Shown here: piece after piece, positions 26,391 through 37,623 of the stretch
Numbering within the stretch: position 1 is the first letter of the stretch
Layout: each line of letters starts with the position of its first letter
Source of the DNA: a virus
Lineage: Duplodnaviria; Heunggongvirae; Uroviricota; Caudoviricetes
Virus record (IMG/VR): IMGVR_UViG_3300013105_000002
Coordinates: 1 to 64,000 of that record
DNA length: 64,000 nt
Reading direction: 5' to 3' (one strand)
The notes under the pieces: model-generated
What the model was told of the DNA's origin: nothing
The model's input: the letters and a program-made list of their open reading frames with translations, nothing else
The model's database searches: none
Translations under genes and position numbers: made by a program

Positions 26391-26445
26391 ATACCCCGGG
26401 GGTATGGTGTTTTCTATACTCTTCTTTGGTATACACTGGGGGTAT
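26391..26445 (+). repeat. two operator-type palindromes without promoter (ATACCCCGGGGGTAT 26391-26405; ATACACTGGGGGTAT 26431-26445)
   Basis: same ATACCC-N-GGGTAT family as downstream array. Confidence 0.6.
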
Positions 26446-26462
26446 ACACCTACCGGCGATAG

Positions 26463-26514
26463 ATACCCCGAAGGGTATCTATGGACTTGACACGTCTTTA
26501 CAGACTGATAGTCT
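26463..26514 (+). promoter_or_regulatory. operator + promoter P1 (leaderless gene 26521)
   Basis: op 26463-26478; -35 TTGACA 26487-26492; -10 TAGTCT 26509-26514; ATG 6 nt downstream. Confidence 0.6.
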
Positions 26515-26520
26515 TCTCTC

Positions 26521-27102
26521 ATGACAACAAACACCACGCCCCACACGAACCACATCCTTGCGGCATACCTGCGAGCATCCGAGGACGACCGTGCCTTTGG
26601 TATCGCTTGGTACCCCGCCGCTCGTGCCCTTGCTGAGAATCTTCTACCTGAGGACGTGAGCACCGCCGCAGGTGTTCTTGCTGCCATGTCTCCCATGACG
26701 TCATGGCCCGAGAACGTCAAGCGCGCGACTGTCGCCATCATGGGTGGCAAGGTCTCGCACACTGGCCCGAACGTTGACAAGGTTCTGCGCATCCTGTCCG
26801 GTGAGCACCCGCTCGACGTGCTGTCCGGTCCCAAGACTCGCGCGTTCTACCTCAACATCATGGGAATCGACAGTGACGAGACGGTCACTGTGGACAGACA
26901 CGCTATCGACGTGGCATGCGGTAATGTCCTCTCGGACTCCGACCGTGCCGGTGCCATCCGTGGCAAGGCAGGCTATGGTAAGGTCGCCGGTATGTACCGT
27001 GAGGCTGCAAGCGTTATCGGAATCACCCCGTGTGCCCTACAGGCCGTTGTTTGGGTGTACTGGCGGCGAAACGTTGCTCAGGCTTTCCACGGTGACGCGT
27101 GA
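26521..27102 (+). CDS. hypothetical protein
   Basis: 193-aa GC-rich ORF. Confidence 0.55.
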   Translation: MTTNTTPHTNHILAAYLRASEDDRAFGIAWYPAARALAENLLPEDVSTAAGVLAAMSPMTSWPENVKRATVAIMGGKVSHTGPNVDKVLRILSGEHPLDVLSGPKTRAFYLNIMGIDSDETVTVDRHAIDVACGNVLSDSDRAGAIRGKAGYGKVAGMYREAASVIGITPCALQAVVWVYWRRNVAQAFHGDA

Positions 27103-27234
27103 GGCTTGACACAAAAATCATTGCGGGGCTAGTGATCATGCTTGCCACTAGCCCCGTATGGTTTCCCATAGCGGTATTTTTCTACCTACTAGCACAGTGA
27201 GGTAGGTGGGCGCAAGCCCACCGGCCTTACATTT

Positions 27235-27305
27235 GTACCCCGAGGGTATTAGATACACCGGGGGTATGTGTAGGGCTTGACGCCCGGTAGGTACTCGGGT
27301 AATGT
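27235..27305 (+). promoter_or_regulatory. two operators + promoter P2 (drives ORF-less transcript)
   Basis: ops 27235-27249, 27253-27267; -35 TTGACG 27277-27282; -10 TAATGT 27300-27305. Confidence 0.55.
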
Positions 27306-27311
27306 TGTCCT

Positions 27312-27685
27312 TGTTGGAAGAGACCGAGGCACACAAGCGGTGAGAGTCCGTTATTCCAACGCACTACCGGAGTGGATAGCAAGTCGCTGCTTGGCTTGCA
27401 AGGACGAAACTCCACTAGGGTTGACTTTAAATCAGCCCCTTTGATTTGTGAATAGAGAGAGTCCACGACTCAGACACAAGCCTCTCATGGCGAGCCGTCA
27501 ATGATTTAGACACCACGCTACTAGTGACACGTTCCATGGAACACGTCCACGCCTCTGACGTTCTCTATTAAACGTTGTATCCGAATGCACGCATCCGTGA
27601 TAACATGACCAATGTCTCTCTCTAGGGTAGGTCTGATCAACCTACCGGCCCCGAGCGCAATGCATGGCGCTCGGGGTCTCATATT
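27312..27685 (+). ncRNA. candidate ~375-nt noncoding RNA (ncRNA-1)
   Basis: promoter P2 to strong terminator (ggccccgagcgc/gcgctcggggtc 27647-27678 + U tail); no ORF >11 aa; multiple hairpins incl. GNRA-looped stems. Confidence 0.5.
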
Positions 27686-27694
27686 GTCATCCAT

Positions 27695-27745
27695 ATACAC
27701 TGGGGGTATCTAGACTCTTGACATGAGCGCTGGTAGGCATAGACT
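27695..27745 (+). promoter_or_regulatory. operator + promoter P3
   Basis: op ATACACTGGGGGTAT 27695-27709; -35 TTGACA 27718-27723; -10 TAGACT 27740-27745. Confidence 0.55.
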
Positions 27746-27751
27746 GAGGAT

Positions 27752-27949
27752 ATGAAATCACCACGAAGAGCAATCATCTACAGCCACGGGCTACGCCCTG
27801 CATTTGACAAGCGCAAGTACAGCGATGACAAGAATCAGGCGCGGCGTGCTGCGAAGGGCGGTGTGCCTTGTGAGAAGTGTGGCAGGGTATACAAAGACCC
27901 CAACAGAAAGCACAACTCCGATCCCAAGAACAAGACGCCATGCCTTTGA
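27752..27949 (+). CDS. hypothetical basic protein
   Basis: 65 aa; CEKCG pair. Confidence 0.5.
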   Translation: MKSPRRAIIYSHGLRPAFDKRKYSDDKNQARRAAKGGVPCEKCGRVYKDPNRKHNSDPKNKTPCL

Positions 27950-27963
27950 GCATGGCCCCCTAT

Positions 27964-27993
27964 ATATCCCTAGGGTATGTCAGAGACTTGACA
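27964..27993 (+). promoter_or_regulatory. operator + -35 of promoter P4
   Basis: op ATATCCCTAGGGTAT 27964-27978; -35 TTGACA 27988-27993; -10 unclear. Confidence 0.4.
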
Positions 27994-28022
27994 GCCCTGA
28001 AGACACATGAGAGAGTATGCAT

Positions 28023-28178
28023 ATGAACAGGAACAAGCGGGCGCAGGCCCCCAAGCGAATCAACCGTCATGACTCTGCAATCGGTGACAAGCGCCGTGCG
28101 CGAAGTGGTCCGGTCATCCGAGGACAGCGTTTCGACAGGAACGATTTCCGCAACCAGAGCATGCGGGGTGAGTGGTGA
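28023..28178 (+). CDS. small basic protein (51 aa)
   Basis: ATG directly downstream of P4. Confidence 0.35.
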   Translation: MNRNKRAQAPKRINRHDSAIGDKRRARSGPVIRGQRFDRNDFRNQSMRGEW

Positions 28179-28336
28179 AGACTTTCGATCCTCTAGAGGT
28201 GACCCTCGTTTATGTCGATGTTCTTGGTACTGAGTACCGACAGAGTGCTGCCGACATTGTGGAAGTTGGAACCCTCATCGATCCTGACACCGGCGACGAT
28301 ATGGAACTCGTGCGAGTCGAAGTTCCCAACAACTAG
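28175..28336 (+). CDS. small acidic protein (53 aa)
   Basis: GTGA overlap; ends before next operator. Confidence 0.35.
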   Translation: MKTFDPLEVTLVYVDVLGTEYRQSAADIVEVGTLIDPDTGDDMELVRVEVPNN

Positions 28337-28366
28337 CAGATTGGCCCTTCGGGGTCAAGCCCCAAT

Positions 28367-28447
28367 ATACCCTGAGTGTATGTCTTGGAGGTATATACCC
28401 TAGGGGTACCAAACCGTATTGACACACCCCCGGCATCCCTGTAATGT
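28367..28447 (+). promoter_or_regulatory. two operators + promoter P5
   Basis: ops 28367-28381, 28395-28409; -35 TTGACA 28419-28424; -10 TAATGT 28442-28447. Confidence 0.55.
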
Positions 28448-28453
28448 TTGAGT

Positions 28454-28550
28454 TGTTGGAGAGAGCAACGGTGAACCAAAGAGTGTGCTTCAAGTCTGGC
28501 ACCGGATTGGGAAAGGGCACTCTCTCCAACTCAGAAAGTTTCTTAGCACA
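28454..28550 (+). ncRNA. structured RNA element (ncRNA-2 or long 5' leader of Lsr2-like gene)
   Basis: 5' TTGTTGGAGAGAG pairs with downstream CTCTCTCCAAC; 5' end paralogous to ncRNA-1; no ORF. Confidence 0.4.
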
Positions 28551-28555
28551 ATCGC

Positions 28556-28584
28556 TTGACACTCTGGTCTACATGGATTAGAGT
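28556..28584 (+). promoter_or_regulatory. promoter P6 (no operator) TTGACA-17-TAGAGT
   Basis: -35 28556-28561, -10 28579-28584; RBS GAAAGGA then ATG 28639. Confidence 0.5.
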
Positions 28585-28638
28585 ACGTAGTACCGGGAAA
28601 GAGACACACGGTCTCTCCCAAACGAAAGGACAACCATC

Positions 28639-29025
28639 ATGGCTTCCAAGCGCATCGCCAACCCGACCGAGGTCCGCACGTGGGCTGCCGCCAACCTCGC
28701 CACCATCGACGGGCTCCCCGAGGGCTACCGCCTCGGTGACCGGGGTCAGTTCCCGCCCGCCGTCATCACCGCCTTCAACAAGGCGCACAAGAACGTCAAG
28801 TACGTGCGTGGCGCGTTCGTCAACAAGACGGCGGTCAAGTTCACCCGCGTGACCGACAAGGGCCGCAAGGTGCCCGGTGTGGCTCACATCGACACCACGA
28901 AGGTCCGTGAGGCTGCCCGTGAGGCCGGTCTGGCGCTCCCGTCCAAGGGCCGTCTTCCGCAGGCCGTGAAGGTCGCCTACGCGCAGGGTCCGGACGCCCT
29001 GAAGGCGCTTGCCGCCACGGTCTGA
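28639..29025 (+). CDS. Lsr2-like DNA-binding protein with two tandem Lsr2-type C-terminal domains
   Basis: VRTWAAANL..LGDRGQFPPAVITAF and VREAAREAGLALPSKGRLPQAVKVAY resemble Lsr2 DBD (RGRIPADVIDAY). Confidence 0.65.
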   Translation: MASKRIANPTEVRTWAAANLATIDGLPEGYRLGDRGQFPPAVITAFNKAHKNVKYVRGAFVNKTAVKFTRVTDKGRKVPGVAHIDTTKVREAAREAGLALPSKGRLPQAVKVAYAQGPDALKALAATV

Positions 29026-29033
29026 AGGCCGCA

Positions 29034-29075: not shown

Positions 29076-29128
29076 ATACCCCAAGGGTATCCCATCGGAG
29101 TTGACAGGCTACTGTGAGCGTGTAGACT
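29076..29128 (+). promoter_or_regulatory. operator + promoter P7
   Basis: op ATACCCCAAGGGTAT 29076-29090; -35 TTGACA 29101-29106; -10 TAGACT 29123-29128. Confidence 0.6.
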
Positions 29129-29160: not shown

Positions 29161-29586
29161 ATGAGCAAGCACTACCCCGGAACTCCCAAGGCATGGGCCG
29201 CCGAGCGCGGTCTCTGTGGCACGGGACGTGGACGCCCGCCCAAGGCTGCCATGGATGCCATTGCGGCTGCCATCGCTGACGGTTGGACGTTCGGCGGTGG
29301 GTCGGTGGTGGTGAACAAGTCCGCTGAGCCCACGGGGCCGGTGGTGGAGAAGCCCAAGGACGACAGCCCCAAGGGTGAGGCTGAAGGCGTGAACGTCTAC
29401 GCTGACGCGTTCTACCGCTATGACCGTGAGCAGAAATTCTACTATGAGCATGAGGGCAAGCGTCACGAGTGCTCTGGTCGCACGGCTTGCATGGGCTGTG
29501 GATACAGTCTCATTGGACACACGTGCAACGAAATGGTAGGCTTGACCAAGCACGGACAGAAAGTCATCAAGCCGCTGGGAGAGTGA
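29161..29586 (+). CDS. protein with N-terminal Lsr2-type DNA-binding motif and C-terminal Cys cluster
   Basis: RBS GGAGG; KAWAAERG..GRGRPPKAAMDAIAAA; C-terminal HECSGRTACMGCG. Confidence 0.55.
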   Translation: MSKHYPGTPKAWAAERGLCGTGRGRPPKAAMDAIAAAIADGWTFGGGSVVVNKSAEPTGPVVEKPKDDSPKGEAEGVNVYADAFYRYDREQKFYYEHEGKRHECSGRTACMGCGYSLIGHTCNEMVGLTKHGQKVIKPLGE

Positions 29587-29589: not shown

Positions 29590-29862
29590 ATGGCACGCAT
29601 GAGCATTGAACAGAAACTCGCTGACAAGGTGGTGGATGCCACTCTGAGAGCAGACTTCGATGCGCCTCGGTTTGCCTACATCATGAACCGTTGTGGATGG
29701 AAGATTCAGGAAGTTCTGTTTCAGGTGGTGCTCGGGATGATCCGTCACTGGGCTATTGACCTAGAGACGGACAACACCAAGGGTGGAGCCGATGAGTATT
29801 ACCGGCTGACCATCAAGGCGAAAATCCTGCAGGATGCCATCGACCGTAACAAAATCGAGTGA
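29590..29862 (+). CDS. hypothetical protein
   Basis: 90-aa ORF. Confidence 0.5.
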   Translation: MARMSIEQKLADKVVDATLRADFDAPRFAYIMNRCGWKIQEVLFQVVLGMIRHWAIDLETDNTKGGADEYYRLTIKAKILQDAIDRNKIE

Positions 29863-29911
29863 GATTAGGGAGTCATCGTAAGAGGTGGCTCCCTACCTCA
29901 TTGGGGTATGC

Positions 29912-29990
29912 ATACCCTTGGGGTATTTGTATTGATACATACCCCGGGGGTATTGTCAGGGCTTGACGGATGACTCTGAGGTGATAGTCT
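29912..29990 (+). promoter_or_regulatory. operators + promoter P8 (leaderless)
   Basis: ops 29912-29926, 29939-29953 (plus inverted copy 29903-29917); -35 TTGACG 29963-29968; -10 TAGTCT 29985-29990; ATG 6 nt later. Confidence 0.6.
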
Positions 29991-29996: not shown

Positions 29997-30509
29997 ATGA
30001 ACCTCACAGACGCACAGATGCTCGCACGCACGGCTCTCGACGCCCACGGTCTCACCGACAAGGGTTGGCGAGTCGAGTGGGACAATGCCAAGAGGCGCAA
30101 CGGCTCTGCCTCATCCTCTGCTCGTGTCATCACCCTGTCGGCACCGCTGACGCACCTGAAGACACCTGAAGAGATGCGTCAGACCATTGGTCACGAAATC
30201 GCTCACGCCCTTGTTGGTACCCAGCACGGACACGGGCCGGTGTGGAAGGCCAAGATGCGGGAGTTGGGCCTAGTCGTGTCCACTACGGCAGTCCTCTCGG
30301 AAGAGACACGCGGCCAGATTGCCACGCTGAGGAACTACACCCTCACGTGCGTGGTGAACGGCAAGAGTCTCGGACACCTTGACAGGATCGTCAAGCAGCG
30401 CAAGGTCAGGCGCGGGGGCGGGTATGTCCTACGTACCTATGGCGCTCGTGTCTGCAAGTGCCACGGGGAGCCTGTCCTCTACAACGGCAAGTCATGGGAC
30501 GATATCTGA
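29997..30509 (+). CDS. SprT-like zinc metallopeptidase
   Basis: GHEIAHAL (HExxH) + downstream H/G; C-terminal CKCHG zinc ribbon. Confidence 0.7.
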   Translation: MNLTDAQMLARTALDAHGLTDKGWRVEWDNAKRRNGSASSSARVITLSAPLTHLKTPEEMRQTIGHEIAHALVGTQHGHGPVWKAKMRELGLVVSTTAVLSEETRGQIATLRNYTLTCVVNGKSLGHLDRIVKQRKVRRGGGYVLRTYGARVCKCHGEPVLYNGKSWDDI

Positions 30510-30538: not shown

Positions 30539-30590
30539 ATACCCTGAGGGTAATTCCACCATTGACACCCGCGCCGGTAGGTGGTTGAAT
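30539..30590 (+). promoter_or_regulatory. operator + promoter P9
   Basis: op 30539-30553; -35 TTGACA 30562-30567; -10 TTGAAT 30585-30590. Confidence 0.5.
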
Positions 30591-30622: not shown

Positions 30623-30805
30623 ATGAAGACGGTAACTCTCTACTTCGTTGCACAGCCCGAGCCTGATGGCAGCACGCCGAACCCGAGCCTCTTCTACCTG
30701 AACGAAGACTACGACTTCGTGTCTCAGGAAGTTCCTCAGGGTGAGCGTGTCTACAGCGTCGGCGCGATCCTCATGGATGACACTGTGGAGGAAGTTGCCA
30801 ACTGA
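30623..30805 (+). CDS. hypothetical protein
   Basis: RBS AGGAGG; 60 aa. Confidence 0.5.
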   Translation: MKTVTLYFVAQPEPDGSTPNPSLFYLNEDYDFVSQEVPQGERVYSVGAILMDDTVEEVAN

Positions 30806-30825: not shown

Positions 30826-30875
30826 ATACCCTGAGGGTATGTCTCACTTGACAAGCGCCGGTGGATGCGTAGACT
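30826..30875 (+). promoter_or_regulatory. operator + promoter P10 (leaderless)
   Basis: op ATACCCTGAGGGTAT 30826-30840; -35 30848-30853; -10 TAGACT 30870-30875. Confidence 0.6.
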
Positions 30876-30881: not shown

Positions 30882-31097
30882 ATGGACATGGAAATCATTG
30901 ACACAGTACAGGCCCACACGTTGGAGCCGGGAGACACCATCGAGTACATCGATGACGAGGGACGCCGCTCACTTCAAGAAATCAAGAGCGCCGAAGACCT
31001 CGGAGACACCATCCGTGTGCAGTTGGAAGACTACGACGACGTAGACCTCTATGCTGATGGTGAGCAGAACATCTACGGATATCCTGCCGAAGACTGA
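30882..31097 (+). CDS. hypothetical acidic protein
   Basis: 71-aa ORF. Confidence 0.5.
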   Translation: MDMEIIDTVQAHTLEPGDTIEYIDDEGRRSLQEIKSAEDLGDTIRVQLEDYDDVDLYADGEQNIYGYPAED

Positions 31098-31162
31098 CAG
31101 GAACGCGGGGGAGTCGGAGAAATTCGGCTCCCCCAAACCTGTATCGTAAAGCCCATGAACAT

Positions 31163-31263
31163 TTCCCGAGGGTATCTACATACCCCAAGGGTATAGGATC
31201 ACACAAAACAAATACCCCATGAGGTATGGATGGGCTTGACAGGTCTCTGGGAACTGATAGTCT
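31163..31263 (+). promoter_or_regulatory. three operators + promoter P11 (leaderless)
   Basis: ops 31163-31175, 31180-31194, 31212-31227; -35 TTGACA 31236-31241; -10 TAGTCT 31258-31263. Confidence 0.6.
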
Positions 31264-31269: not shown

Positions 31270-31635
31270 ATGAACGAACGAGACAAGCCGATGACCGGCG
31301 AGCACGCAGCAATCATCTTCGCGCAGGGCCTCACCGCCAAGTTCGCAGACAGCGAGTGGCCGTACAACCCTGAGTTCTCCGCTGATCTTTCGGGCAAGAA
31401 GTACATCCGAATCGTCAATGAGGGCAACCCTCACCCCGAGGACCAGACAACGAACCTGTACCGTCGTCAGCGCTCGTGCCACGCGTACGTGGACCGCGAG
31501 ACGGGCGAGGTGTACAAGTCCTCAGGATGGAAGGGTGGACCGGCCAAGGTCAACGGCAAGGCCGATGCACGATACCCCAACGTTTGGGAGGCTCTGGTCA
31601 AGGCTGACCGGAACGGAGGATACCTGTACAAGTAA
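31270..31635 (+). CDS. hypothetical protein
   Basis: 121-aa ORF. Confidence 0.55.
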   Translation: MNERDKPMTGEHAAIIFAQGLTAKFADSEWPYNPEFSADLSGKKYIRIVNEGNPHPEDQTTNLYRRQRSCHAYVDRETGEVYKSSGWKGGPAKVNGKADARYPNVWEALVKADRNGGYLYK

Positions 31636-31653: not shown

Positions 31654-31767
31654 ATACCCTTCGGGGTATTTTCTTGTTCTTACCCTATACCCTAGGGGTA
31701 TGCCTTGAAACGAAATACCCTTGGGGTATGGGATGGTGTTGACAGCCCTGCTCCCATGGTGTTTACT
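31654..31767 (+). promoter_or_regulatory. three operators + promoter P12 (leaderless)
   Basis: ops 31654-31669, 31687-31701, 31715-31729; -35 TTGACA 31739-31744; -10 TTTACT 31762-31767. Confidence 0.55.
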
Positions 31768-31773: not shown

Positions 31774-32037
31774 ATGAACAAGCAGACGCGCAAAGCGTAC
31801 CTCACTGACCTTGGTGCCCGTATCTACAATGCGGACACCTCCACCGAACTCATCGTGATCGCCACGGACATGGCAGATGCCGCGTCCATGGGTCGCTCGG
31901 AGACATGGAAGGGTGCTTGCACGATGGCAGGACGACGCACCCTCGCCAAGTTCAACATCGGTGTCCCGGTGCCATTCAAGGACGTTGGTGCCGTGGTCCA
32001 GCAAGGCTACGATGCCATGGTGGCAGCCAACAAGTAA
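31774..32037 (+). CDS. hypothetical protein
   Basis: ORF 31705 start overlaps promoter; ATG 31774 used. Confidence 0.5.
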   Translation: MNKQTRKAYLTDLGARIYNADTSTELIVIATDMADAASMGRSETWKGACTMAGRRTLAKFNIGVPVPFKDVGAVVQQGYDAMVAANK

Positions 32038-32079: not shown

Positions 32080-32131
32080 ATACACCGGGGGTATGTTCTA
32101 GGCTTGACACACACTACCAGACTGATAGTAT
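32080..32131 (+). promoter_or_regulatory. operator + promoter P13 (leaderless)
   Basis: op ATACACCGGGGGTAT 32080-32094; -35 32104-32109; -10 TAGTAT 32126-32131. Confidence 0.6.
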
Positions 32132-32137: not shown

Positions 32138-32371
32138 ATGAGCCAAATGACATTCCACGAGCAGTTCGGTGAAGTTTCTGTCGCACAACTCCGTGCATAC
32201 AAGGCGCACAACGTCTCTCAGTCCGACCACGACTCCCTCGCCACGTTCTACTCCGAGGGCGGCCACGAGTCCATCACAAAGGCGGTGAAAGACCCACGCA
32301 ACCACGTGCCCGGAACGAGGTTGTTCTCGTGGCACACGTGGTACTCCAACACCGAGCGTTACAACTGGTGA
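32138..32371 (+). CDS. hypothetical protein
   Basis: 77-aa ORF. Confidence 0.5.
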   Translation: MSQMTFHEQFGEVSVAQLRAYKAHNVSQSDHDSLATFYSEGGHESITKAVKDPRNHVPGTRLFSWHTWYSNTERYNW

Positions 32372-32406
32372 ACACACCGGCCCTACGGGGTCCGTGTGTA
32401 TACCCC

Positions 32407-32458
32407 GGGGGTAATTAGAGTGTTGACCACCAGCGCCGGTAGGTGTAGAGTAAAGGTA
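32407..32458 (+). promoter_or_regulatory. operator + promoter P14 (drives ORF-less transcript)
   Basis: op 32407-32421; -35 TTGACC 32430-32435; -10 TAGAGT 32453-32458. Confidence 0.5.
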
Positions 32459-32464
32459 TTGAAG

Positions 32465-32606
32465 GGGATGGAAGGACGCAAGGTGCAAATCCCTGCTAGC
32501 AATTGAACCCTTCGACGCAAGACATGTATGTGACAGTGCATGCCATAGAGACTAGTCATCTCGCCGGGGCCTGAGCCTGACTAACTCAGGTCTCTTGCTT
32601 TTGCCA
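32465..32606 (+). ncRNA. candidate ~140-nt noncoding RNA (ncRNA-3)
   Basis: no + strand ORF; ends in hairpin cctgag...ctcagg + tctcttgcttttg. Confidence 0.4.
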
Positions 32607-32611: not shown

Positions 32612-32758
32612 ATACCCTAGGGGTAAATTCGGCTCCTAGAATCGCTTATCGTAAACGGTCTGTTCGCTATCCCCCAAGGGTGCACATACCCTCGTGGGAT
32701 TTGATATACCCTTGGGGTATGCCAGACAGGTTGACACGTCCCGGCATGTGAGTAGACT
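32612..32758 (+). promoter_or_regulatory. operators + promoter P15
   Basis: ops 32612-32626, 32686-32700, 32706-32720; -35 32731-32736; -10 TAGACT 32753-32758; leader with RBS GAGGAAA. Confidence 0.55.
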
Positions 32759-32795: not shown

Positions 32796-33065
32796 ATGGC
32801 ACGTCAACTCCGAGTCATCGCCCGCGAGATCGTGAAGGACTACGCAGACAAGGGCAAGCCGGTCACGCCGTTTGCCAAGCCGTACGTGGACGCGATGCTC
32901 ACGATGGACAGCGTGGCCGACACCTACGGAGCCGAGAGTGGCGAGTACGTCGTCCTCTACGGGCTGCACAACCTCTCCGGATGGCGAGGCGAGAAGGCAC
33001 GCGAGGTGAAGGCCGAACTGAAGGCTCTTGTCTCCGAGCATCGCAGGGCGAACCCGCGCCGGTGA
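32796..33065 (+). CDS. hypothetical protein
   Basis: ATG 32796 after RBS; 89 aa. Confidence 0.5.
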   Translation: MARQLRVIAREIVKDYADKGKPVTPFAKPYVDAMLTMDSVADTYGAESGEYVVLYGLHNLSGWRGEKAREVKAELKALVSEHRRANPRR

Positions 33066-33104: not shown

Positions 33105-33156
33105 ATACCCCGAGGGTATAGTTTGGTGTTGACAGGTCGGGCGGTAGGAGTAGACT
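33105..33156 (+). promoter_or_regulatory. operator + promoter P16 (leaderless)
   Basis: op ATACCCCGAGGGTAT 33105-33119; -35 33129-33134; -10 TAGACT 33151-33156. Confidence 0.6.
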
Positions 33157-33162: not shown

Positions 33163-33375
33163 ATGAAAACGATCAATGGATGCGCAGTCATCGCCCACCG
33201 TCCCTACGGCAACACCCTTCCGTCTGAGGGTTTCGTGATCCTCGCAGTCAAGACGCTCGGTGACTCTTACGAGTACATCACTGCTGTTGTCTCCACGCTC
33301 GATGACAGGGAGTGGTTCTGGGGTCACTACATCACCTCGCTAGAGGAAGCCACGTCCGACTACTTCTCTCGCTGA
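33163..33375 (+). CDS. hypothetical protein
   Basis: 70-aa ORF. Confidence 0.5.
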   Translation: MKTINGCAVIAHRPYGNTLPSEGFVILAVKTLGDSYEYITAVVSTLDDREWFWGHYITSLEEATSDYFSR

Positions 33376-33405: not shown

Positions 33406-33457
33406 ATACCCTGAGGGTATGTCAACGCATTGACAGCCCTCCAATCCTTGATAGGAT
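33406..33457 (+). promoter_or_regulatory. operator + promoter P17 (leaderless)
   Basis: op 33406-33420; -35 33430-33435; -10 TAGGAT 33452-33457. Confidence 0.55.
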
Positions 33458-33463: not shown

Positions 33464-33631
33464 ATGTACTACGACATGGACGACCACCGTTGCTTCGACT
33501 GTGATGGGCGCTACTGCCCACCGGGCCAGTGCCTCCGTACCGAGACCTCCGTGTGGGTCGTGGGTCACGGTTGGACCGACCCCGAGACTGCCAAGGGCTT
33601 TGAGGCTCTGGGAAGGACGGTGCAGTGGTGA
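33464..33631 (+). CDS. small Cys-rich protein (55 aa)
   Basis: CFDCDGRYCPPGQC; below track cutoff. Confidence 0.4.
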   Translation: MYYDMDDHRCFDCDGRYCPPGQCLRTETSVWVVGHGWTDPETAKGFEALGRTVQW

Positions 33632-33649: not shown

Positions 33650-33701
33650 ATCCCCTAAGGGTATGTCTAGGTGTTGACACCTGACCTGTAGGGTGTAGAC
33701 T
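33650..33701 (+). promoter_or_regulatory. operator + promoter P18
   Basis: op ATCCCCTAAGGGTAT 33650-33664; -35 33674-33679; -10 TAGACT 33696-33701. Confidence 0.55.
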
Positions 33702-33708: not shown

Positions 33709-33918
33709 ATGAAGACGATCACAGTGACCATGACCGGCGAGGCTTTCGAGTCCTACAGCGTGGACGGGGCCTACTTCCCCGAGTTCAAGAACGACGAGAG
33801 CGGCGAGTGGGATGCCATTCCTGCCGTCTTCGTCGGACGCCCCATCATGCACCGTGGACAGGTGGGAGACGCAACGATCCTCTACGGGCTCGACGTTCGG
33901 AAGGTGACAATGCAGTAA
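33709..33918 (+). CDS. hypothetical protein
   Basis: 69-aa ORF. Confidence 0.5.
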   Translation: MKTITVTMTGEAFESYSVDGAYFPEFKNDESGEWDAIPAVFVGRPIMHRGQVGDATILYGLDVRKVTMQ

Positions 33919-33950: not shown

Positions 33951-34003
33951 ATACCCTCGGGGTAAGTCTGAGACTTGACATGCATGCCCTAGGGGTACAT
34001 AAT
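33951..34003 (+). promoter_or_regulatory. operator + promoter P19 (leaderless); half-operator inside spacer
   Basis: op 33951-33965; -35 33975-33980; -10 CATAAT 33998-34003. Confidence 0.5.
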
Positions 34004-34009: not shown

Positions 34010-34213
34010 ATGAACACGATCCGAGACCTCATCCTCACCGCCAACGGTGGCAGTATGCACACGGCCACCCTGAACACGCTCACCATGCTTGTGTTCGCGG
34101 TCCTCTTCATCGCTGCCGGTGTTGCTTGCGCCTACGTCGTGGCAGCCCTCACGGCACAGCACAAGGCTCACATGCACACCGACAAGGTGACCGTCATCAC
34201 CGACGCACAGTGA
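34010..34213 (+). CDS. small membrane protein
   Basis: ATG 34010; one TM helix. Confidence 0.5.
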   Translation: MNTIRDLILTANGGSMHTATLNTLTMLVFAVLFIAAGVACAYVVAALTAQHKAHMHTDKVTVITDAQ

Positions 34214-34229: not shown

Positions 34230-34281
34230 ATACCCTTAGGGTATGTTTGAGGTTTGACACAATGCCCCAAACTGATATGCT
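34230..34281 (+). promoter_or_regulatory. operator + promoter P20
   Basis: op ATACCCTTAGGGTAT 34230-34244; -35 34254-34259; -10 TATGCT 34276-34281. Confidence 0.55.
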
Positions 34282-34309: not shown

Positions 34310-34516
34310 ATGTCTCGCAAGGATTACGAAGCGCTCGCGGCAGTCATCGCGGGTGAGGTGGCATGTGCGGCAGGTAACAAGGACAAACTGCGCACGTCCT
34401 CCAACATCGCTCGGAGCATGGCTGACGTGTTCCACCGTGGAAACGAGCGTTTCGACCGTGTGCGCTTTTACAAGGCTTGCGGACTGGACATGACGGGCGG
34501 TTTCCCCGACGTGTGA
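34310..34516 (+). CDS. hypothetical protein
   Basis: RBS GGAAGGGGA + ATG 34310. Confidence 0.5.
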   Translation: MSRKDYEALAAVIAGEVACAAGNKDKLRTSSNIARSMADVFHRGNERFDRVRFYKACGLDMTGGFPDV

Positions 34517-34556: not shown

Positions 34557-34608
34557 ATACCCTCGGGGTATATATAGGCTTGACAGTGCACCTAGGGTGT
34601 GATTGAAT
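34557..34608 (+). promoter_or_regulatory. operator + promoter P21
   Basis: op ATACCCTCGGGGTAT 34557-34571; -35 34580-34585; -10 TTGAAT 34603-34608. Confidence 0.55.
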
Positions 34609-34644: not shown

Positions 34645-34785
34645 ATGATCGTCGAAATCCGCAACAACGGTCTCATCATCGACTACGTGGTAATGCCTAA
34701 CTTCCGAGCGGCTGTCATGTTCACCCAGAGATTCAACCGAGTCTCCACAAACAAGGGTTTCACCCAGAGGGCGGTGATCGCCTGA
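34645..34785 (+). CDS. hypothetical protein (46 aa)
   Basis: RBS AAGGAGA + ATG 34645. Confidence 0.4.
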   Translation: MIVEIRNNGLIIDYVVMPNFRAAVMFTQRFNRVSTNKGFTQRAVIA

Positions 34786-34806: not shown

Positions 34807-34858
34807 ATACACTCGGGGTATATCAATGGCTTGACACGAGGCCGGTATTTGATATGCT
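34807..34858 (+). promoter_or_regulatory. operator + promoter P22 (drives ORF-less transcript)
   Basis: op ATACACTCGGGGTAT 34807-34821; -35 34831-34836; -10 TATGCT 34853-34858. Confidence 0.55.
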
Positions 34859-34864
34859 TGTTAT

Positions 34865-34968
34865 ATGAGGTCGGAGGGAGAGCGGACCAAAAAAGTCTCA
34901 CCGTCAGAGAAGACGCAAATCGCACAGTGAGTCTAGGCTGCAAGGGTCTAGGCTCACTTGTTTGTCTA
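34865..34968 (+). ncRNA. candidate ~105-nt noncoding RNA (ncRNA-4)
   Basis: no ORF; 3' hairpin gtgagtctaggc...ctaggctcac 34927-34957 + TTGTTTG. Confidence 0.45.
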
Positions 34969-34972
34969 TAGA

Positions 34973-35023
34973 ATACCCTAGGGGTATACAAGTGGCTTGA
35001 CACATGCCGCCGATCTGATAGAG
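34973..35023 (+). promoter_or_regulatory. operator + promoter P23 (leaderless)
   Basis: op ATACCCTAGGGTAT 34973-34986; -35 34996-35001; -10 TAGAGT 35018-35023. Confidence 0.55.
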
Positions 35024-35029
35024 TTCTCA

Positions 35030-35113
35030 CATGGGAATCATCATCGTGTCACTGCTCGCAGCAATCTTTTGGCGCATCGCCATCAGCCCGATCATCGACA
35101 GTTTCAACAAGTA
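35030..35113 (+). CDS. tiny hydrophobic peptide (27 aa)
   Basis: ATG 6 nt after -10; followed by strong terminator. Confidence 0.25.
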
Positions 35114-35120
35114 GGGCGTG

Positions 35121-35148
35121 AAAGGCCCGGAGAAATCCGGGCCTTTTG
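35121..35148 (+). terminator. rho-independent terminator
   Basis: aaggcccgga gaaa tccgggcctt + ttgcg. Confidence 0.65.
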
Positions 35149-35175
35149 CGTGTCATCGTAAAAGGCCCAATTGGT

Positions 35176-35190
35176 ATACCCCAAGGGTAC
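35176..35190 (+). repeat. orphan operator copy ATACCCCAAGGGTAC
   Basis: no -35 downstream; sits before bidirectional terminator. Confidence 0.5.
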
Positions 35191-35206
35191 AAAACGGGCA
35201 TGAGAA

Positions 35207-35235
35207 GACCCTAGGTGCGCCGCTCACCTAGGGTC
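35207..35235. terminator. bidirectional terminator (perfect 11-bp stem)
   Basis: gaccctaggtg cgccgct cacctagggtc between convergent + and - genes. Confidence 0.6.
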
Positions 35236-35245
35236 TCTCTGGGTC

Positions 35246-35398
35246 TCAGGCCATGGACACCTCACGCTTCCACGTGGAGCGCTCACGGCGCTTGGCGATC
35301 CGTCGTGCCATCTTACGGGCGCTGGGCGCGTCACCGCAGCAAGAGCAGTCACGACCACCGGGGCCGTAGGGGCAGGACTTGCCAATCATGCGAGCCAT
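35246..35398 (-). CDS. small basic Cys-rich protein (50 aa), only minus-strand gene in the early array
   Basis: MARMIGKSCPYGPGGRDCSCCGD...RRIAKRRERSTWKR; own promoter. Confidence 0.45.
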   Translation of the reverse strand: MARMIGKSCPYGPGGRDCSCCGDAPSARKMARRIAKRRERSTWKREVSMA

Positions 35399-35437
35399 GA
35401 TTTTCTCTCTCTGTAGTTGTTTTTTCTTGCTGGGATA

Positions 35438-35467
35438 AACATATGACAGATGGCCGGTGGTGTCAAG
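35438..35467 (-). promoter_or_regulatory. minus-strand promoter CTTGACA-17-TATGTT
   Basis: revcomp of 35461-35467 = -35; revcomp of 35438-35443 = -10; divergent from P25. Confidence 0.5.
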
Positions 35468-35475
35468 CCGATCCA

Positions 35476-35555
35476 ATACCCCAAGGGTAAATCATCAGAC
35501 AGATACCCCTAGGGTATGTTTTTGGCTTGACGATGTTTCCGCATTCCCGTAGTGT
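35476..35555 (+). promoter_or_regulatory. two operators + promoter P25
   Basis: ops 35476-35490, 35503-35517; -35 TTGACG 35527-35532; -10 TAGTGT 35550-35555. Confidence 0.5.
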
Positions 35556-35601
35556 TTCTCTTGTCAGGAGGAAACGCCTCCCCCACACAAAAGGATTTGA
35601 A

Positions 35602-35895
35602 ATGTCGCTCTCCCTCGCCGGAACCAAGTCCACGGTTGTCTCGCCCGCCTCGCACGGCATCGACAACTACGGCCCCGAGGTGCAGGCAATCACCTTCAAG
35701 TACAACGGGGTCGCCTACACGATCAACCGTCGTGGCAACTCCAACGTCAAGGGCTTCCACTCCTTCCGGAACAACACGTACACGGTCACCAACGGCACCG
35801 ACCGTGTGTCGAACATGATCGTCAACCGTTTCGACTTCGTGTCCATCCTCTACACTGACGGTCGAATCGAGTCGAACGACTACACCGCTCGATGA
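35602..35895 (+). CDS. hypothetical protein
   Basis: RBS AAAGGA + ATG 35602; 97 aa. Confidence 0.5.
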   Translation: MSLSLAGTKSTVVSPASHGIDNYGPEVQAITFKYNGVAYTINRRGNSNVKGFHSFRNNTYTVTNGTDRVSNMIVNRFDFVSILYTDGRIESNDYTAR

Positions 35896-35900
35896 GAGGC

Positions 35901-35918
35901 AGGCCCCTTCGGGGGCCT
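35901..35918 (+). terminator. hairpin terminator
   Basis: aggcccc ttcg ggggcct. Confidence 0.55.
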
Positions 35919-35940
35919 AGCCTTTCGCCCATGACATACC

Positions 35941-35955
35941 CTCGGGGTATGTAGT
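35941..35955 (+). repeat. operator copy ATACCCTCGGGGTAT (weak promoter downstream)
   Basis: -35-like TTGTGT 35964-35969 only. Confidence 0.4.
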
Positions 35956-35993
35956 CTATTGTGTTACTGTCCGGTAGGGTATAGGGTGGTCAC

Positions 35994-36155
35994 ATGACCA
36001 AATACAAGTATGAGATTTTCCACGCTGTCAGTGGCGGCTTTTTCACGGGTCACCTTCACACGGTGTACTCCAACTCCAACGATGCCAACCTGTGGTGCGA
36101 GACGTTCGAACGTCAGGGCTACACGGGCCTCTACATGATCCGCAGGGAGGTCTAG
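35994..36155 (+). CDS. hypothetical protein (53 aa)
   Basis: + strand ORF; overlapping minus-strand ORF 35964-36239 judged spurious. Confidence 0.4.
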   Translation: MTKYKYEIFHAVSGGFFTGHLHTVYSNSNDANLWCETFERQGYTGLYMIRREV

Positions 36156-36183
36156 CACAAAGACCCTTCGGGGTCCATTAACA

Positions 36184-36236
36184 ATTACCCTCGGGGTATG
36201 TGTAGGGCTTGACATGATCCCCAGAACTGATAAACT
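36184..36236 (+). promoter_or_regulatory. operator + promoter P26 (leaderless)
   Basis: op 36184-36199; -35 36209-36214; -10 TAAACT 36231-36236. Confidence 0.55.
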
Positions 36237-36242
36237 CATGCC

Positions 36243-36461
36243 ATGAACGAAAACGAGATCACCCGCATCGTGGCCGACGCTCTGCGTGAGGCTTACGCCA
36301 TCAACACCGCTCAGTTCAAGGACGAGAAGGTGGAGCGTGAGACCGTGGACAGCGTGCTGTATGACGTTGCCTACAACATCGCTCAGGAGGTATGGCCCAC
36401 GCGCAGCCCTGAGTCTCCGGTCATGCCAGACGAGTGGTTGGAGGCGATCAAGGGTCGCTGA
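36243..36461 (+). CDS. hypothetical protein
   Basis: 72-aa ORF. Confidence 0.5.
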   Translation: MNENEITRIVADALREAYAINTAQFKDEKVERETVDSVLYDVAYNIAQEVWPTRSPESPVMPDEWLEAIKGR

Positions 36462-36466
36462 GGATA

Positions 36467-36487
36467 GGCTCCCACGGGAGCCTTTTC
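36467..36487 (+). terminator. rho-independent terminator
   Basis: ggctccc ac gggagcc + ttttcc. Confidence 0.6.
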
Positions 36488-36501
36488 CTTTACCCTACCG
36501 C

Positions 36502-36554
36502 ATACCCTAGGGGTATATATGGGGCTTGACATGGAGTCGGGCGGCAGGTAATGT
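36502..36554 (+). promoter_or_regulatory. operator + promoter P27
   Basis: op ATACCCTAGGGGTAT 36502-36516; -35 36526-36531; -10 TAATGT 36549-36554. Confidence 0.55.
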
Positions 36555-36589
36555 TCTTCTTGTCAGAACATCGATGAAAGGAAACTGAC

Positions 36590-36736
36590 ATGTACGAGCA
36601 CCCCGACCACGGCATCATGACTCTGGAAGAAGTTTGGATGACCGACGCTGGTGTGAAGTACGGTCGATTCGTGACCGTCAAGTGGGGAACGTCCATCAAC
36701 ATGCCCATCTGCATGGTGCACAAGTTGCCATCATGA
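36590..36736 (+). CDS. hypothetical protein (48 aa)
   Basis: RBS AAAGGA + ATG 36590. Confidence 0.4.
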   Translation: MYEHPDHGIMTLEEVWMTDAGVKYGRFVTVKWGTSINMPICMVHKLPS

Positions 36737-36753
36737 TGTAAAGGAAATCCGGT

Positions 36754-36778
36754 CAGCCCTTCGGGGTTGGCTGTTTTT
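36754..36778 (+). terminator. rho-independent terminator
   Basis: cagccc ttcg gggttg + ctgttttt. Confidence 0.6.
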
Positions 36779-36790
36779 CCGGTCAAGCCT

Positions 36791-36843
36791 ATACCCTTGG
36801 GGTATATCAGTACGCTTGACATGCCCCGATTTTCTGATTAGGC
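36791..36843 (+). promoter_or_regulatory. operator + promoter P28
   Basis: op ATACCCTTGGGGTAT 36791-36805; -35 36816-36821; weak -10 TTAGGC 36838-36843. Confidence 0.45.
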
Positions 36844-36881
36844 TGGGGCTACGCCCAAGCAACACCGACTAAGGAGACACC

Positions 36882-37151
36882 GTGAACGTCACCCCGAAGA
36901 CCGCCGCTCGCCAGATCGTCCTCGCCCGTGCGGAGCGTGCTGCAAAGCCCGTTTACACGTCCGAGACGGGCGTGGTGCGTCCGGTTCGCGTGGAGGCCGC
37001 TCCCATCGTGGAGGACGACCCGCACTGCTTCGTTTGTGGTCGGCACACGGATCACTTCGCAGAGCACGACGACATGGTGGAGGCTGGCACGGCCACCTAC
37101 GGCGAGGACGGGAGTGTCTACCCTGTCCCGTGGAACTTCATCCTCGGGTGA
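36882..37151 (+). CDS. hypothetical protein
   Basis: RBS AAGGAGA + GTG 36882; CFVCG..H pair. Confidence 0.5.
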   Translation: MNVTPKTAARQIVLARAERAAKPVYTSETGVVRPVRVEAAPIVEDDPHCFVCGRHTDHFAEHDDMVEAGTATYGEDGSVYPVPWNFILG

Positions 37152-37156
37152 GGCGA

Positions 37157-37178
37157 GGGGCCGAAAGGCCCCTTTCTT
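37157..37178 (+). terminator. rho-independent terminator
   Basis: ggggcc gaaa ggcccc + tttctt. Confidence 0.65.
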
Positions 37179-37190
37179 CATGTGTGTGAC

Positions 37191-37243
37191 ATACCCTCGG
37201 GGTATCCCAAAGTATTGACAAAAGCGCCGGTAGCAAATAGGCT
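37191..37243 (+). promoter_or_regulatory. operator + promoter P29
   Basis: op ATACCCTCGGGGTAT 37191-37205; -35 37215-37220; -10 TAGGCT 37238-37243. Confidence 0.55.
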
Positions 37244-37278
37244 ATGCGTAGCAAGCCAAACAGAAGAGAGAAGGAACA

Positions 37279-37491
37279 ATGTCTTTCCTTGCAGAAGCAC
37301 ATCAGGAATGGCACACGGTTCATGGACAGGTCGTTTGTCCTCTGGATTGTGGAATCGGAGAGGGTCAGGACGACTACGATCACGAGCCCATGACCGAAGA
37401 AGAGGAAATCGAACTTCAAGCATGGCGAGCACGACAGGAAGCGATGGATTCCACTGATGATCCCGCTCCTTGGGAGGTTGCCCCGTTTTGA
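37279..37491 (+). CDS. hypothetical acidic protein
   Basis: RBS AGAAGGA + ATG 37279; 70 aa. Confidence 0.5.
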   Translation: MSFLAEAHQEWHTVHGQVVCPLDCGIGEGQDDYDHEPMTEEEEIELQAWRARQEAMDSTDDPAPWEVAPF

Positions 37492-37550
37492 GAAGAAGGC
37501 CCGAAGAAATTCGGGTCTTTTTTCTTTTTATCGTAAGCGACCATCATGAC

Positions 37551-37623
37551 ATACCCCCGGGGGAATTCGGGTTGTTTTGGGCTCTATCGTAAATGAGCCT
37601 TTTGATATACCCCCGGGGGATAT
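37551..37623 (+). repeat. two variant operator copies (ATACCCCCGGGGGAAT 37551-37566; ATACCCCCGGGGGATAT 37607-37623) abutting the DnaA-box cluster
   Basis: each preceded by ATCGTAA(A/G) motif. Confidence 0.5.

Follow-up and report, generated by a model that had tools for sequence, protein, structure and literature searches.

Within 11 kb of the stretch of DNA analyzed here, a 15-bp palindromic element (ATACCCY-N-RGGGTAT, hereafter the dyad) occurs in 44 copies and is coupled to about 29 promoters. The stretch (hereafter the window) comprises 64,000 nucleotides, positions 1 to 64,000 of the IMG/VR virus record IMGVR_UViG_3300013105_000002 (Caudoviricetes), and sequence comparison identifies its source as an uncultured soil phage related to the large Streptomyces phages, with the cluster BE phages as distant relatives. 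The view that we favor, with somewhat more confidence than doubt, is that the dyads form an operator array for one twofold-symmetric protein, which would exert class-wide control over the ~29 early promoters, most likely by shutting them off.

A 15-bp dyad at a fixed distance upstream of one promoter class

Exact matches to ATACCC-N2-4-GGGTAT number 21 in the window, all between 26391 and 37205, and none was found in 100 dinucleotide-preserving shuffles. An earlier note on this DNA had named equal frequency in shuffled sequence as the result that would undo its claim of an array, and the array stands. With up to one mismatch there were 37 copies with a 3-bp center (N3) and 4 with a 4-bp center (N4); no genuine copy had another spacing, two N5 matches being other registers of N3 sites. 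Up to two mismatches gave 46 matches in the 26-38 kb interval, of which 44 (26391-37621) were accepted as copies, close to the ~43 first proposed; those left out were 37620, which consists of two DnaA-box-like repeats, and a weak match at 37778. The other 52 kb contains five weak two-mismatch matches (three N4 and two N2, a count that includes 37778), and the hexamer ATACCC is 29 times denser in the array region than outside it. Across 108 distinct modules of dyad and promoter, the twelve half-site columns carry 1.4-2.0 bits, positions 7 and 9 (Y and R) about 1 bit, the center 0 bits and the flanks 0.1-0.4 bits. This distribution refines the motif to a 7-1-7 dyad and indicates that it is under strong selection. 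Many conserved copies, far above chance and in regulatory positions, are the pattern of an operator array.

A pattern scan showed that 27 dyads end 7-10 bp upstream of a TTGAC-type -35 hexamer, with a -10 box 16-17 bp further on. Two promoters were added to these, one at 35936 with a weak -35 (TTGTGT) and one on the minus strand at 35466, giving a total of 29 coupled promoters and bearing out the earlier estimate of about 29 sigma-70-like promoters. Among the 27 pattern-found promoters, the gap between dyad and -35 measures 9 bp in 18 cases, 8 bp in 6, 10 bp in 3 and 7 bp in 1, and the only minus-strand promoter has its own dyad, also with a 9-bp gap. The coupling proposed in the earlier note is therefore real, but its range of 6-12 bp narrows to 7-10 bp, mostly 9. 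Taking the -10 box as -12 to -7, the dyad is centered at about -51 relative to the inferred start and spans -44 to -58. The hexamers are those of sigma-70/sigma-A (HrdB-type) promoters (TTGACA-like -35 and TANNNT-like -10, 16-18 bp apart), and an independent promoter scan returned 19 sites as against 7.1 +/- 2.2 in shuffles. The ATG of 13-15 genes is found 6-7 nt past the -10 box. Such leaderless genes are common and typical in actinobacteria, and this placement of the ATG lends independent support to working promoters. In all, the promoters of the array look genuine.

In a typical unit, a stop codon is followed by a GC-rich hairpin (e.g. GGCCCCTCCGGGGGCC), 4-18 variable bases (measured by eye), the dyad, 9 bp, the promoter (TTGACA, 16-17 bp, TAGACT or TAGTCT, often with an extended -10 TG) and the gene. 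The distance from terminator hairpin to dyad thus varies, whereas that from dyad to -35 is fixed. Six promoters have two or three dyads, 18-40 bp apart from start to start. About 30 other good promoters of the form TTGAC-N16-18-TANNNT occur in the window without a dyad, which means that the dyad is not part of promoter function in this phage and instead marks one class. The coupled promoters are listed below with the strand, the dyad where specified, the gap from dyad to -35, the promoter given as -35, spacer length and -10, and the downstream gene (ORF, open reading frame; aa, amino acids).

26391-37621: whole array, 44 copies of ATACCCY-N-RGGGTAT; putative terminal-repeat early region
26463-26514 (+): module 1, palindrome 26463-26478 (N4), gap 8, TTGACA-16-TAGTCT; leaderless DUF7178 gene 26521-27102
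27253-27305 (+): module 2, ATACACCGGGGGTAT, gap 9, TTGACG-17-TAATGT; ~400 nt downstream without convincing ORF
27695-27745 (+): module 3, ATACACTGGGGGTAT, gap 8, TTGACA-16-TAGACT; leaderless 65-aa gene 27752-27949
27964-28016 (+): module 4, ATATCCCTAGGGTAT, gap 9, TTGACA, weak -10; 51-aa Arg-rich gene 28023-28178, then gene 28172-28336
28395-28447 (+): module 5, ATACCCTAGGGGTAC, gap 9, TTGACA-17-TAATGT; then palindrome-free promoter 28556 and Lsr2-like gene 28639-29025
29076-29128 (+): module 6, gap 10, TTGACA-16-TAGACT; genes 29161-29586 (AT-hook, Lsr2-like N-terminus) and 29590-29862 (BE-conserved family)
29939-29990 (+): module 7, gap 9, TTGACG-16-TAGTCT; leaderless SprT-like gene 29997-30509
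30539-30590 (+): module 8, ATACCCTGAGGGTAA, gap 8, TTGACA-17-TTGAAT; gene 30623-30805
30826-30875 (+): module 9, gap 7, TTGACA-16-TAGACT; leaderless gene 30882-31097
31212-31263 (+): module 10, palindrome N4 with 1 mismatch, gap 8, TTGACA-16-TAGTCT; leaderless DUF7717 gene 31270-31635
31715-31767 (+): module 11, gap 9, TTGACA-17-TTTACT; gene 31774-32037
32080-32131 (+): module 12, ATACACCGGGGGTAT, gap 9, TTGACA-16-TAGTAT; leaderless gene 32138-32371
32400-32451 (+): module 13, gap 8, TTGACC-17-TAGAGT; ~150 nt downstream without convincing ORF
32706-32758 (+): module 14, gap 10, TTGACA-16-TAGACT; gene 32796-33065 (89 aa, kept in distant relatives)
33105-33156 (+): module 15, gap 9, TTGACA-16-TAGACT; leaderless gene 33163-33375
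33406-33457 (+): module 16, gap 9, TTGACA-16-TAGGAT; leaderless gene 33464-33631
33650-33701 (+): module 17, ATCCCCTAAGGGTAT, gap 9, TTGACA-16-TAGACT; leaderless gene 33709-33918
33951-34003 (+): module 18, gap 9, TTGACA-17-CATAAT, degenerate copy 33984-33998 within spacer; leaderless gene 34010-34213
34230-34281 (+): module 19, gap 9, TTGACA-16-TATGCT; gene 34310-34516
34557-34608 (+): module 20, gap 8, TTGACA-17-TTGAAT; gene 34645-34785
34807-34858 (+): module 21, ATACACTCGGGGTAT, gap 9, TTGACA-16-TATGCT; ~100 nt without convincing ORF up to terminator-like hairpin 34926-34958
34973-35024 (+): module 22, gap 9, TTGACA-16-TAGAGT; leaderless 27-aa gene 35031-35114
35438-35490 (-): module 23 (divergent), palindrome 35476-35490, gap 9, TTGACA (35466-35461)-17-TATGTT; Cys-rich gene 35398-35246
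35503-35555 (+): module 24, gap 9, TTGACG-17-TAGTGT; gene 35602-35895
35936-35987 (+): module 25, gap 8, weak -35 TTGTGT, spacer 17, TAGGGT; leaderless gene 35994-36155
36185-36236 (+): module 26, TTACCCTCGGGGTAT, gap 9, TTGACA-16-TAAACT; leaderless gene 36243-36461
36502-36554 (+): module 27, gap 9, TTGACA-17-TAATGT; gene 36590-36736
36791-36844 (+): module 28, gap 10, TTGACA-17-TAGGCT; gene 36882-37151
37191-37243 (+): module 29, gap 9, TTGACA-17-TAGGCT; gene 37279-37491

Could the element instead act as RNA? It might fold in run-through transcripts, or in transcripts started at a second motif (ATCGTAA, described below), and serve as a nut-like target of an Arg-rich antiterminator, as a processing site or as a second terminator stem. 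Some copies do start 14 nt after ATCGTAA, possibly a -10-like box; the region contains many terminators that an antiterminator could override; and a conserved Arg-rich protein of 51 aa with an isoelectric point (pI) of 12 (28023-28178) is present in all relatives covering that part. However, an RNA element has no need of a fixed distance to the next -35, and most copies come after a proper terminator, the separate GC-rich hairpin described above. The dyad hairpin is itself weak (-5.3 kcal/mol), and the recurrent variant ATACAC...GGGTAT, found at four promoters with normal spacing, does not fold at all. Among 209 site contexts, off-consensus cells were mismatched in 174 cases and G-T in 24, and only 10 were compensated. 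The dyad therefore shows neither the stable GC-rich hairpin and T run of an intrinsic terminator nor the compensatory pairing of a structured RNA; palindromes with a T-rich tail accounted for just 8 of 24 matches in a terminator-like scan, and an Rfam search of 25-39 kb at E <= 1 gave no match. A terminator or simple RNA hairpin was ruled out by the folding energy, the missing covariation and the fixed promoter spacing, and we consider the broader RNA reading quite improbable. The uncompensated changes, the non-folding variant and the fixed -35 distance point to a protein-binding DNA site, and the best reading of the dyad is as a site for one twofold-symmetric DNA-binding protein. The single dimeric regulator predicted in the earlier note fits a site of this kind, in which sequence rather than pairing is conserved, the distance to -35 is fixed and diverged relatives have it in common.

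The array promoters may fall into two subclasses, judging from their spacers. About 10 of 28 have a CCGGTAG(G)-like sequence between -35 and -10 (e.g. 27284, 30574, 32436, 35971 and 37227), which is also present in the BE1 phage Peebs and in the metagenome loci L007, L043 and L109; an extended -10 (TGATAGTCT) is seen in most of the rest. Four units consist of a promoter and a terminator without a convincing ORF between them (27306-27690, 28447-28555, 32452-32600 and 34859-34960). Two of these begin with TTGTTGGA after a TAATGT -10, and an identical start occurs at 22696 and in the distant relative L140. These units possibly encode small RNAs; they had no Rfam match.

The gene block and its relatives

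Searches of phage collections at the DNA level with the window matched no sequenced phage. The array region and a single module, used as queries in near and distant DNA searches of phage collections, also found no match, nor did searches of IMG/VR with the module pattern and by protein-based locus. A 131,368-bp contig from a soil metagenome (ENA ERZ27252505, k141_4075598) includes the window as an identical segment. The window's ribonucleotide reductase (RNR) and portal proteins share 57-60% identity with their counterparts in Streptomyces phages of clusters BE and BK (Stanwilliamsviridae).

The array region (26.4-37.6 kb) contains 28 small genes, one of them Lsr2-like, and is followed by an HNH-like ORF at 37785 (assigned by its CxxC/HxxC motif and by synteny; no Pfam match), ThyX (40150-40962, minus strand), a glycosyltransferase (42803) and RNR (43878). 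Peebs has the same order: a terminal repeat of ~22 tiny genes including an lsr2-like gene, an HNH endonuclease, ThyX on the opposite strand, a glycosyltransferase and RNR. Direct terminal repeats of BE1 phages are ~11 kb long with 20-25 ORFs (PMC5764925), and that of Coruscant was also reported to be richer in GC than the rest of its genome (PMC8612146), as the array region is here (55-57.5% as against ~51% in its surroundings). Several metagenome assemblies break around the region, which is weak support for a terminal repeat. From the Peebs-like gene order, the Lsr2-like gene inside and the higher GC, we take the region most likely to correspond to the ~11-kb direct terminal repeat found in cluster BE phages, which it matches in position and content, and hence to be an early-gene block; by analogy, its cassettes are likely the genes expressed first after infection. 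The earlier note had described a regulon of tiny, mostly ORFan genes; the region is better seen as this terminal-repeat block and not just as such genes.

The resemblance extends to size and content (~11 kb, 20-28 tiny genes, an Lsr2-like gene, higher GC; PMC5764925; PMC8612146), to the neighboring HNH, ThyX, glycosyltransferase and RNR genes, and to the per-gene terminator hairpin and TAGACT-type promoter, which are also found in Peebs and the BE2 phage Birchlyn. On the other hand, RNR and portal identity is only 57-60%, and the block 26391-37621 is inverted relative to the HNH-ThyX-RNR backbone as compared with BE1 and BE2 (L001 1-10400 and L120 1-9800). Terminal-repeat early blocks are known from BE phages, SPO1 and T5 (PMC5764925), and the cassettes here are comparable, by analogy, to the SPO1 host-takeover module and the T5 pre-early genes.

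Metagenomes provided the closer relatives. Scanning them for the module found the near-identical contig L026 and the diverged L109, L043, L014, L007 and L116, and an exact-protein look-up with the product of 29590-29862 found eight further loci in different assemblies, including a second complete-looking contig, of 132,785 bp; patches of these eight match the window at 70-97% identity, and their cassette content varies. Loci L121-L128 carry 23-44 dyads each, the number depending on the extent of the region represented in each locus, in the same segment only and with the same gap distribution. No dyads were found in the flanks of related genomes or in L138 and L139. In the distant L140 and L141, whose homologues of 29590-29862 are 52% and 42% identical, TACCC-N3-GGGTA lies 8-9 bp from TTGACA. 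The motif search in related phages that the earlier note had suggested thus finds the dyad array, at the same spacing, in metagenome relatives.

A strict palindrome of this kind is absent from the cultured relatives Peebs, Birchlyn and Muntaha. Upstream elements are nevertheless present at the repeat promoters of the first two, namely TGTCSGGNCCSGACA in Peebs and GCCGCCCCGGY followed by an A-rich stretch in Birchlyn. These BE1 and BE2 elements are looser, of other sequence and at variable distance, in contrast to the strict 15-bp dyad and fixed 9 bp here. These repeats therefore seem, as a rule, to have an upstream element specific to the lineage; that of the present lineage is the strictest version, and this fits a lineage-specific pair of protein and site.

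Comparison between strains also showed that the ends of similarity blocks cluster at the modules, with 36 of 58 lying within 10 bp of one as against 11.5 +/- 3.0 for random positions. Cassette gain and loss junctions fall inside dyad/-35 modules (29935-29967/30823-30855, 30520-30552/30806-30839 and 32080-32108/32400-32428), and the repeated modules act as recombination points. The same clustering could mean that the dyad has no regulatory role and is a passenger of a duplicated promoter cassette, now serving mainly as homology for cassette shuffling. We consider this very unlikely: conservation is much higher in the dyad than in the linker and flanks of its cassette, the dyad is kept where the cassette genes share only 42-64% protein identity, its gap length is held to +/-1 bp, and extra dyads exist without promoters.

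Proposed control of the promoter class and candidate binders

In the mechanism that we propose, a single sequence-specific, twofold-symmetric protein would bind the 15-bp dyad at 29 strong host-type (sigma-A/sigma-70-like) promoters, where the dyad is centered ~51 bp before the inferred start. The promoters would drive the small gene cassettes of the likely ~11-kb terminal repeat, first expressed after infection. Since the dyad would tag this class apart from the ~30 other sigma-70-like promoters, the whole class could be regulated together. Near-consensus promoters should fire unaided, and equivalents without a dyad exist elsewhere in the window, so that shut-off is likelier than activation. 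The outcome would be a coordinated shut-off after the early phase, in which the upstream-bound protein holds or excludes RNA polymerase, helped by the dyad clusters of 2-4 copies. Phage phi29 offers a precedent for repressing promoters from upstream: its protein p4 represses strong early promoters by holding RNA polymerase via the alpha subunit. Protein, site, position (near -71/-82) and host all differ, however.

Several points weigh against this proposal. A site near -51 misses the core contacts of polymerase, and simple steric repression is therefore not expected from it; the position is unusual for such a repressor, and the effect may be either repression or activation. Both the timing and the direction of regulation are ones that we infer. 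No binding protein was found in the parts of the genome read (about half), and Pfam searches with 23 of the 28 repeat proteins gave no DNA-binding match except Lsr2_DNA-bd and a weak AT-hook. The confident model of the 90-aa protein encoded at 29590-29862 is a four-helix bundle with no significant structural neighbor, and the conserved 89-aa protein likewise models as a generic four-helix bundle. Finally, the motif is unchanged across relatives at 42-52% protein identity, which would also fit a binder encoded by the host.

The last point is shared by the opposite reading, in which a protein near -51 activates by recruiting polymerase in a class-I-like manner, or acts as a counter-silencer that keeps a host Lsr2-type silencer off these comparatively AT-rich foreign promoters; in both cases the early genes would fire at once. 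The upstream position and the fixed phase relative to -35 suit an activator, the stability of the motif across diverged relatives is as expected of a host-protein anchor, and the phage has Lsr2-like genes of its own in the early block. Against it stand the promoters themselves, which are near-consensus (TTGACA, 16-17 bp, TAGACT, often with an extended -10) and have similar counterparts elsewhere without a dyad. Furthermore, an activator needed at time zero must be encoded by the host or injected with the DNA, and in 185,579 bacterial and archaeal genomes (596 Gb) the module gave just 9 single matches, none in an actinobacterium; by our estimate ~17 would be expected by chance for 18 specified bases in 596 Gb. 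The scan of these genomes found no host regulon of this module architecture and no prophage relatives. A host protein possibly uses the dyad in other positions. Overall, activation or counter-silencing is an unlikely account, and the one that we take most seriously after class-wide shut-off.

The half-sites resemble two known types of operator. Known operators of the metal sensor CsoR overlap the core promoter, whereas the phage site lies at -44 to -58, off it. The streptomycete CsoR operator has the consensus ATATACCCCTNAGGGGTATAT, best conserved at ATACCC and GGGTAT and flanked by a TAC/GTA inverted repeat (PMC3902906). The phage dyad has the same 6-bp half-sites with the TAC/GTA repeat around the C/G tracts, and the A at position -2 is partly common to phage sites; a CsoR/RcnR-family sensor, either the host's or an undetected phage copy, might thus be the binder, with the array as a copper link or a decoy. 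However, CsoR operators have TAC-N9-GTA (N5 center), and the phage has strictly TAC-N7-GTA (37 N3 and 4 N4 copies, no real N5). No Pfam match to the family was found in 34 window proteins or in precomputed Pfam tables of neighboring genes. The motif match alone is also weak evidence, since the outer ATAC-N7-GTAT fits a LysR-type box too. We therefore give a CsoR-type binder little credence. In its outer bases and spacing the dyad indeed matches the LysR-type box (T-N11-A within ATAC-N7-GTAT; PMC6628147, PMC11495319), but there is no ~300-aa LysR-type gene in the window or its flanks, and the site is a single one at ~-51 in place of a recognition site at ~-65 and an activation site at ~-35. Both matches are leads, not membership.

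Candidates for a phage-encoded binder under class-wide shut-off were sought among the repeat proteins. PHROGs searches with ten proteins, together with Pfam, found no regulator family, only Lsr2-type domains and the weak AT-hook, and five repeat proteins compared by sequence with solved structures had no match. The earlier note had put forward two candidates, both of which are poor. The divergent Cys-rich gene (35246-35398) is replaced in L121 by an unrelated 82-aa gene while 35 dyads are kept there, which rules it out as a general binder; in L122 and L126 its protein has lost one of four cysteines. The known binding of Lsr2-type proteins to AT-rich minor grooves is at odds with the invariant CCC/GGG core. 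All relatives retain DUF7178 (26521), the 51-aa protein of pI 12 (28023), the Lsr2-like protein (28639), the AT-hook/Cys protein (29161), the 90-aa protein (29590) and the 89-aa protein (32796). Of the repeat protein families, only that of the 90-aa protein has homologues that could be detected in BE1 and BE2 repeats, which would fit a co-evolving pair of protein and site. Elsewhere in the window, beyond the repeat, there are genes for a 59-aa HTH_17 protein (42084-42263) and a WhiB-like protein (12347-12682).

The adjacent genes 28639-29025 and 29161-29586 both match Lsr2-like profiles; one product has two stretches resembling the DNA-binding domain, and the other an AT-hook (GRGRPPK) and a Cys/His cluster. 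In Peebs and Birchlyn, too, an Lsr2-like gene is followed by a small gene and then by the 90-aa gene.

Arrays of one operator are already known in phages. In cluster A mycobacteriophages (stoperators) and in phiC31 (conserved inverted repeats, CIRs), many copies of a short operator serve a single phage regulator, the repressor of lysogeny; stoperators are asymmetric, oriented with transcription, and block elongation. The present array shares with these the many copies per genome and the many transcription units involved, but its element is a true dyad located upstream at a fixed promoter position, after a terminator and before the next -35, and is not a stoperator. Cluster BE phages are, as far as is known, lytic, no integrase or repressor family was among the Pfam matches for the parts of the genome read, and the phage of this window is probably lytic as well; the likeness to CIR and stoperator repressor systems drawn in the earlier note is thus one of analogy only. 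Closer in form is the 17-bp repeat of cluster O mycobacteriophages, TGTTCGGNNNCCGAACA, with more than 30 inverted-repeat copies and a 3-bp variable center (PMC4351075). It too belongs to an actinobacterial phage, has many intergenic copies and is suspected to bind a DNA-binding regulator (PMC4351075), but it is spread genome-wide with about one third of copies inside genes, is not tied to the 8-9 predicted SigA promoters and differs in sequence. What is new here, beside such arrays and the known terminal-repeat early blocks, is that a dyad is coupled strictly one-to-one, and at a fixed position upstream, to ~29 promoters, and that it is confined to a single promoter class in a phage that is probably lytic and has no recognizable binder.

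We found nothing published on regulation of the ~11-kb terminal-repeat block of large lytic Streptomyces phages, and one 15-bp site in one fixed position at ~29 strong promoters, conserved in an uncultured soil phage clade, offers a clean handle on it. The dyad makes the regulator easy to seek by DNA pull-down, and early-gene timing is directly testable. The compact, insulated units (terminator, operator, promoter) could be of use in actinobacterial synthetic biology, and the modules, being cassette-swap junctions between strains, link regulation to the evolution of the gene block.

Extra dyads, the ATCGTAA element and the edges of the block

Dyads beyond the one nearest each promoter are as follows.

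26391-26405 and 26431-26445: two extra copies, upstream of module 1
27235-27249: extra copy GTACCCCGAGGGTAT, 18 bp (start to start) upstream of the module 2 copy
28367-28381: extra copy ATACCCTGAGTGTAT, upstream of module 5
29904-29926: orphan half-site GGGGTAT (29904) and extra copy 29912-29926, upstream of module 7
31161-31175 (degenerate) and 31180-31194: two extra copies, upstream of module 10
31654-31669 (N4) and 31687-31701: two extra copies, upstream of module 11
32612-32626: extra copy ATACCCTAGGGGTAA, directly upstream of a AAATTCGG...ATCGTAA element
32686-32700: degenerate extra copy ATACCCTCGTGGGAT, upstream of module 14
35176-35190: copy without a sigma-70-type promoter, starting 14 nt after ATCGTAA (35155)
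37551-37566: copy (N4) without a sigma-70-type promoter, starting 14 nt after ATCGTAA (37530)
37607-37621: last copy, starting 14 nt after ATCGTAA (37586) and abutting a DnaA-box-like cluster

The earlier note had counted five copies without a promoter. As regards sigma-70-type promoters, this is correct for 35176, 37551 and 37607, but 26391 and 26431 are upstream members of the three-copy cluster of the first promoter.

The ATCGTAA found near several of these copies is part of a bipartite element, AAATTCGG-N15-ATCGTAA, with eight plus-strand occurrences between 25452 and 37592:

25452-25480 (+): AAATTCGG-N15-ATCGTAA
26270-26340 (+): two copies of (G/A)ATTCGG-N15/16-ATCGTAA, at the left edge of the array
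31121-31149 (+): AATTCGG-N15-ATCGTAA, preceding the three-copy cluster at module 10
32626-32654 (+): AATTCGG-N15-ATCGTAA, preceding the cluster at module 14
35134-35161 (+): AATCCGG-N14-ATCGTAA, first half belonging to a terminator hairpin
37508-37592 (+): two AATTCGG-N15-ATCGTAA elements, at the right edge of the array

Weaker copies occur at 23711, 25667 and 29875. The multi-copy dyad clusters at 26391, 29904, 31161 and 32672 are each preceded by an ATCGTAA element, the copy at 29875 being short and partial, and the bipartite element is conserved in L140, L141, L043, L007 and L014, which are distant relatives. About half of the instances have ATCGTAA within the loop of a strong hairpin, the stem of which varies in sequence from copy to copy. 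The element may be a second, phage-specific promoter class with a dyad just downstream of the start, or else an RNA element.

A bolder possibility is that a phage regulator without a recognizable DNA-binding fold works both promoter classes or, in a variant, that a host CsoR-type sensor reads the sites. We hold this to be improbable, though less so than the RNA, CsoR or passenger readings. If true, the ~29 host-type early promoters would be switched off from ~-51 and the AAATTCGG-N15-ATCGTAA promoters gated from ~+7 to +21, so that the hand-over from host-takeover genes to the next phase would be timed within the terminal-repeat block; in the CsoR-type variant, early phage transcription would be tied to the copper state of the host.

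A weak dyad-like sequence is also present at 42430-42445 (minus strand, ATACCCCATAGGGTCG), ~70 bp upstream of the promoter of a leftward operon whose first gene encodes the 59-aa HTH_17 protein (42084-42263).

Between the last dyad and the HNH gene, nine DnaA-box-like 9-mers (TTATCCACA, <=1 mismatch) are found at 37620-37728 on both strands, mostly 11 bp apart, and are probably origin-like or packaging-related iterons. The equivalent repeat edge has the iteron TAGTTGAA in L043 (reverse complement, 860-1031) and GGGTACAT-type iterons in Peebs and Birchlyn (L001 10150-10320; L120 9560-9700), and the iterons are thus lineage-specific. Upstream of the array lie seven tRNA genes (1572-1976, 11543-12090 and 15066-15211), the WhiB-like gene (12347-12682) and a CCA-adding-enzyme-like gene (PolyA_pol, 19236-19961), and the corresponding part of the source contig has the RNA-repair-type genes Thg1 and NADAR, with Thg1 just past the window start. 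This tRNA and RNA-repair content resembles the tRNA-rich right end of BE genomes.

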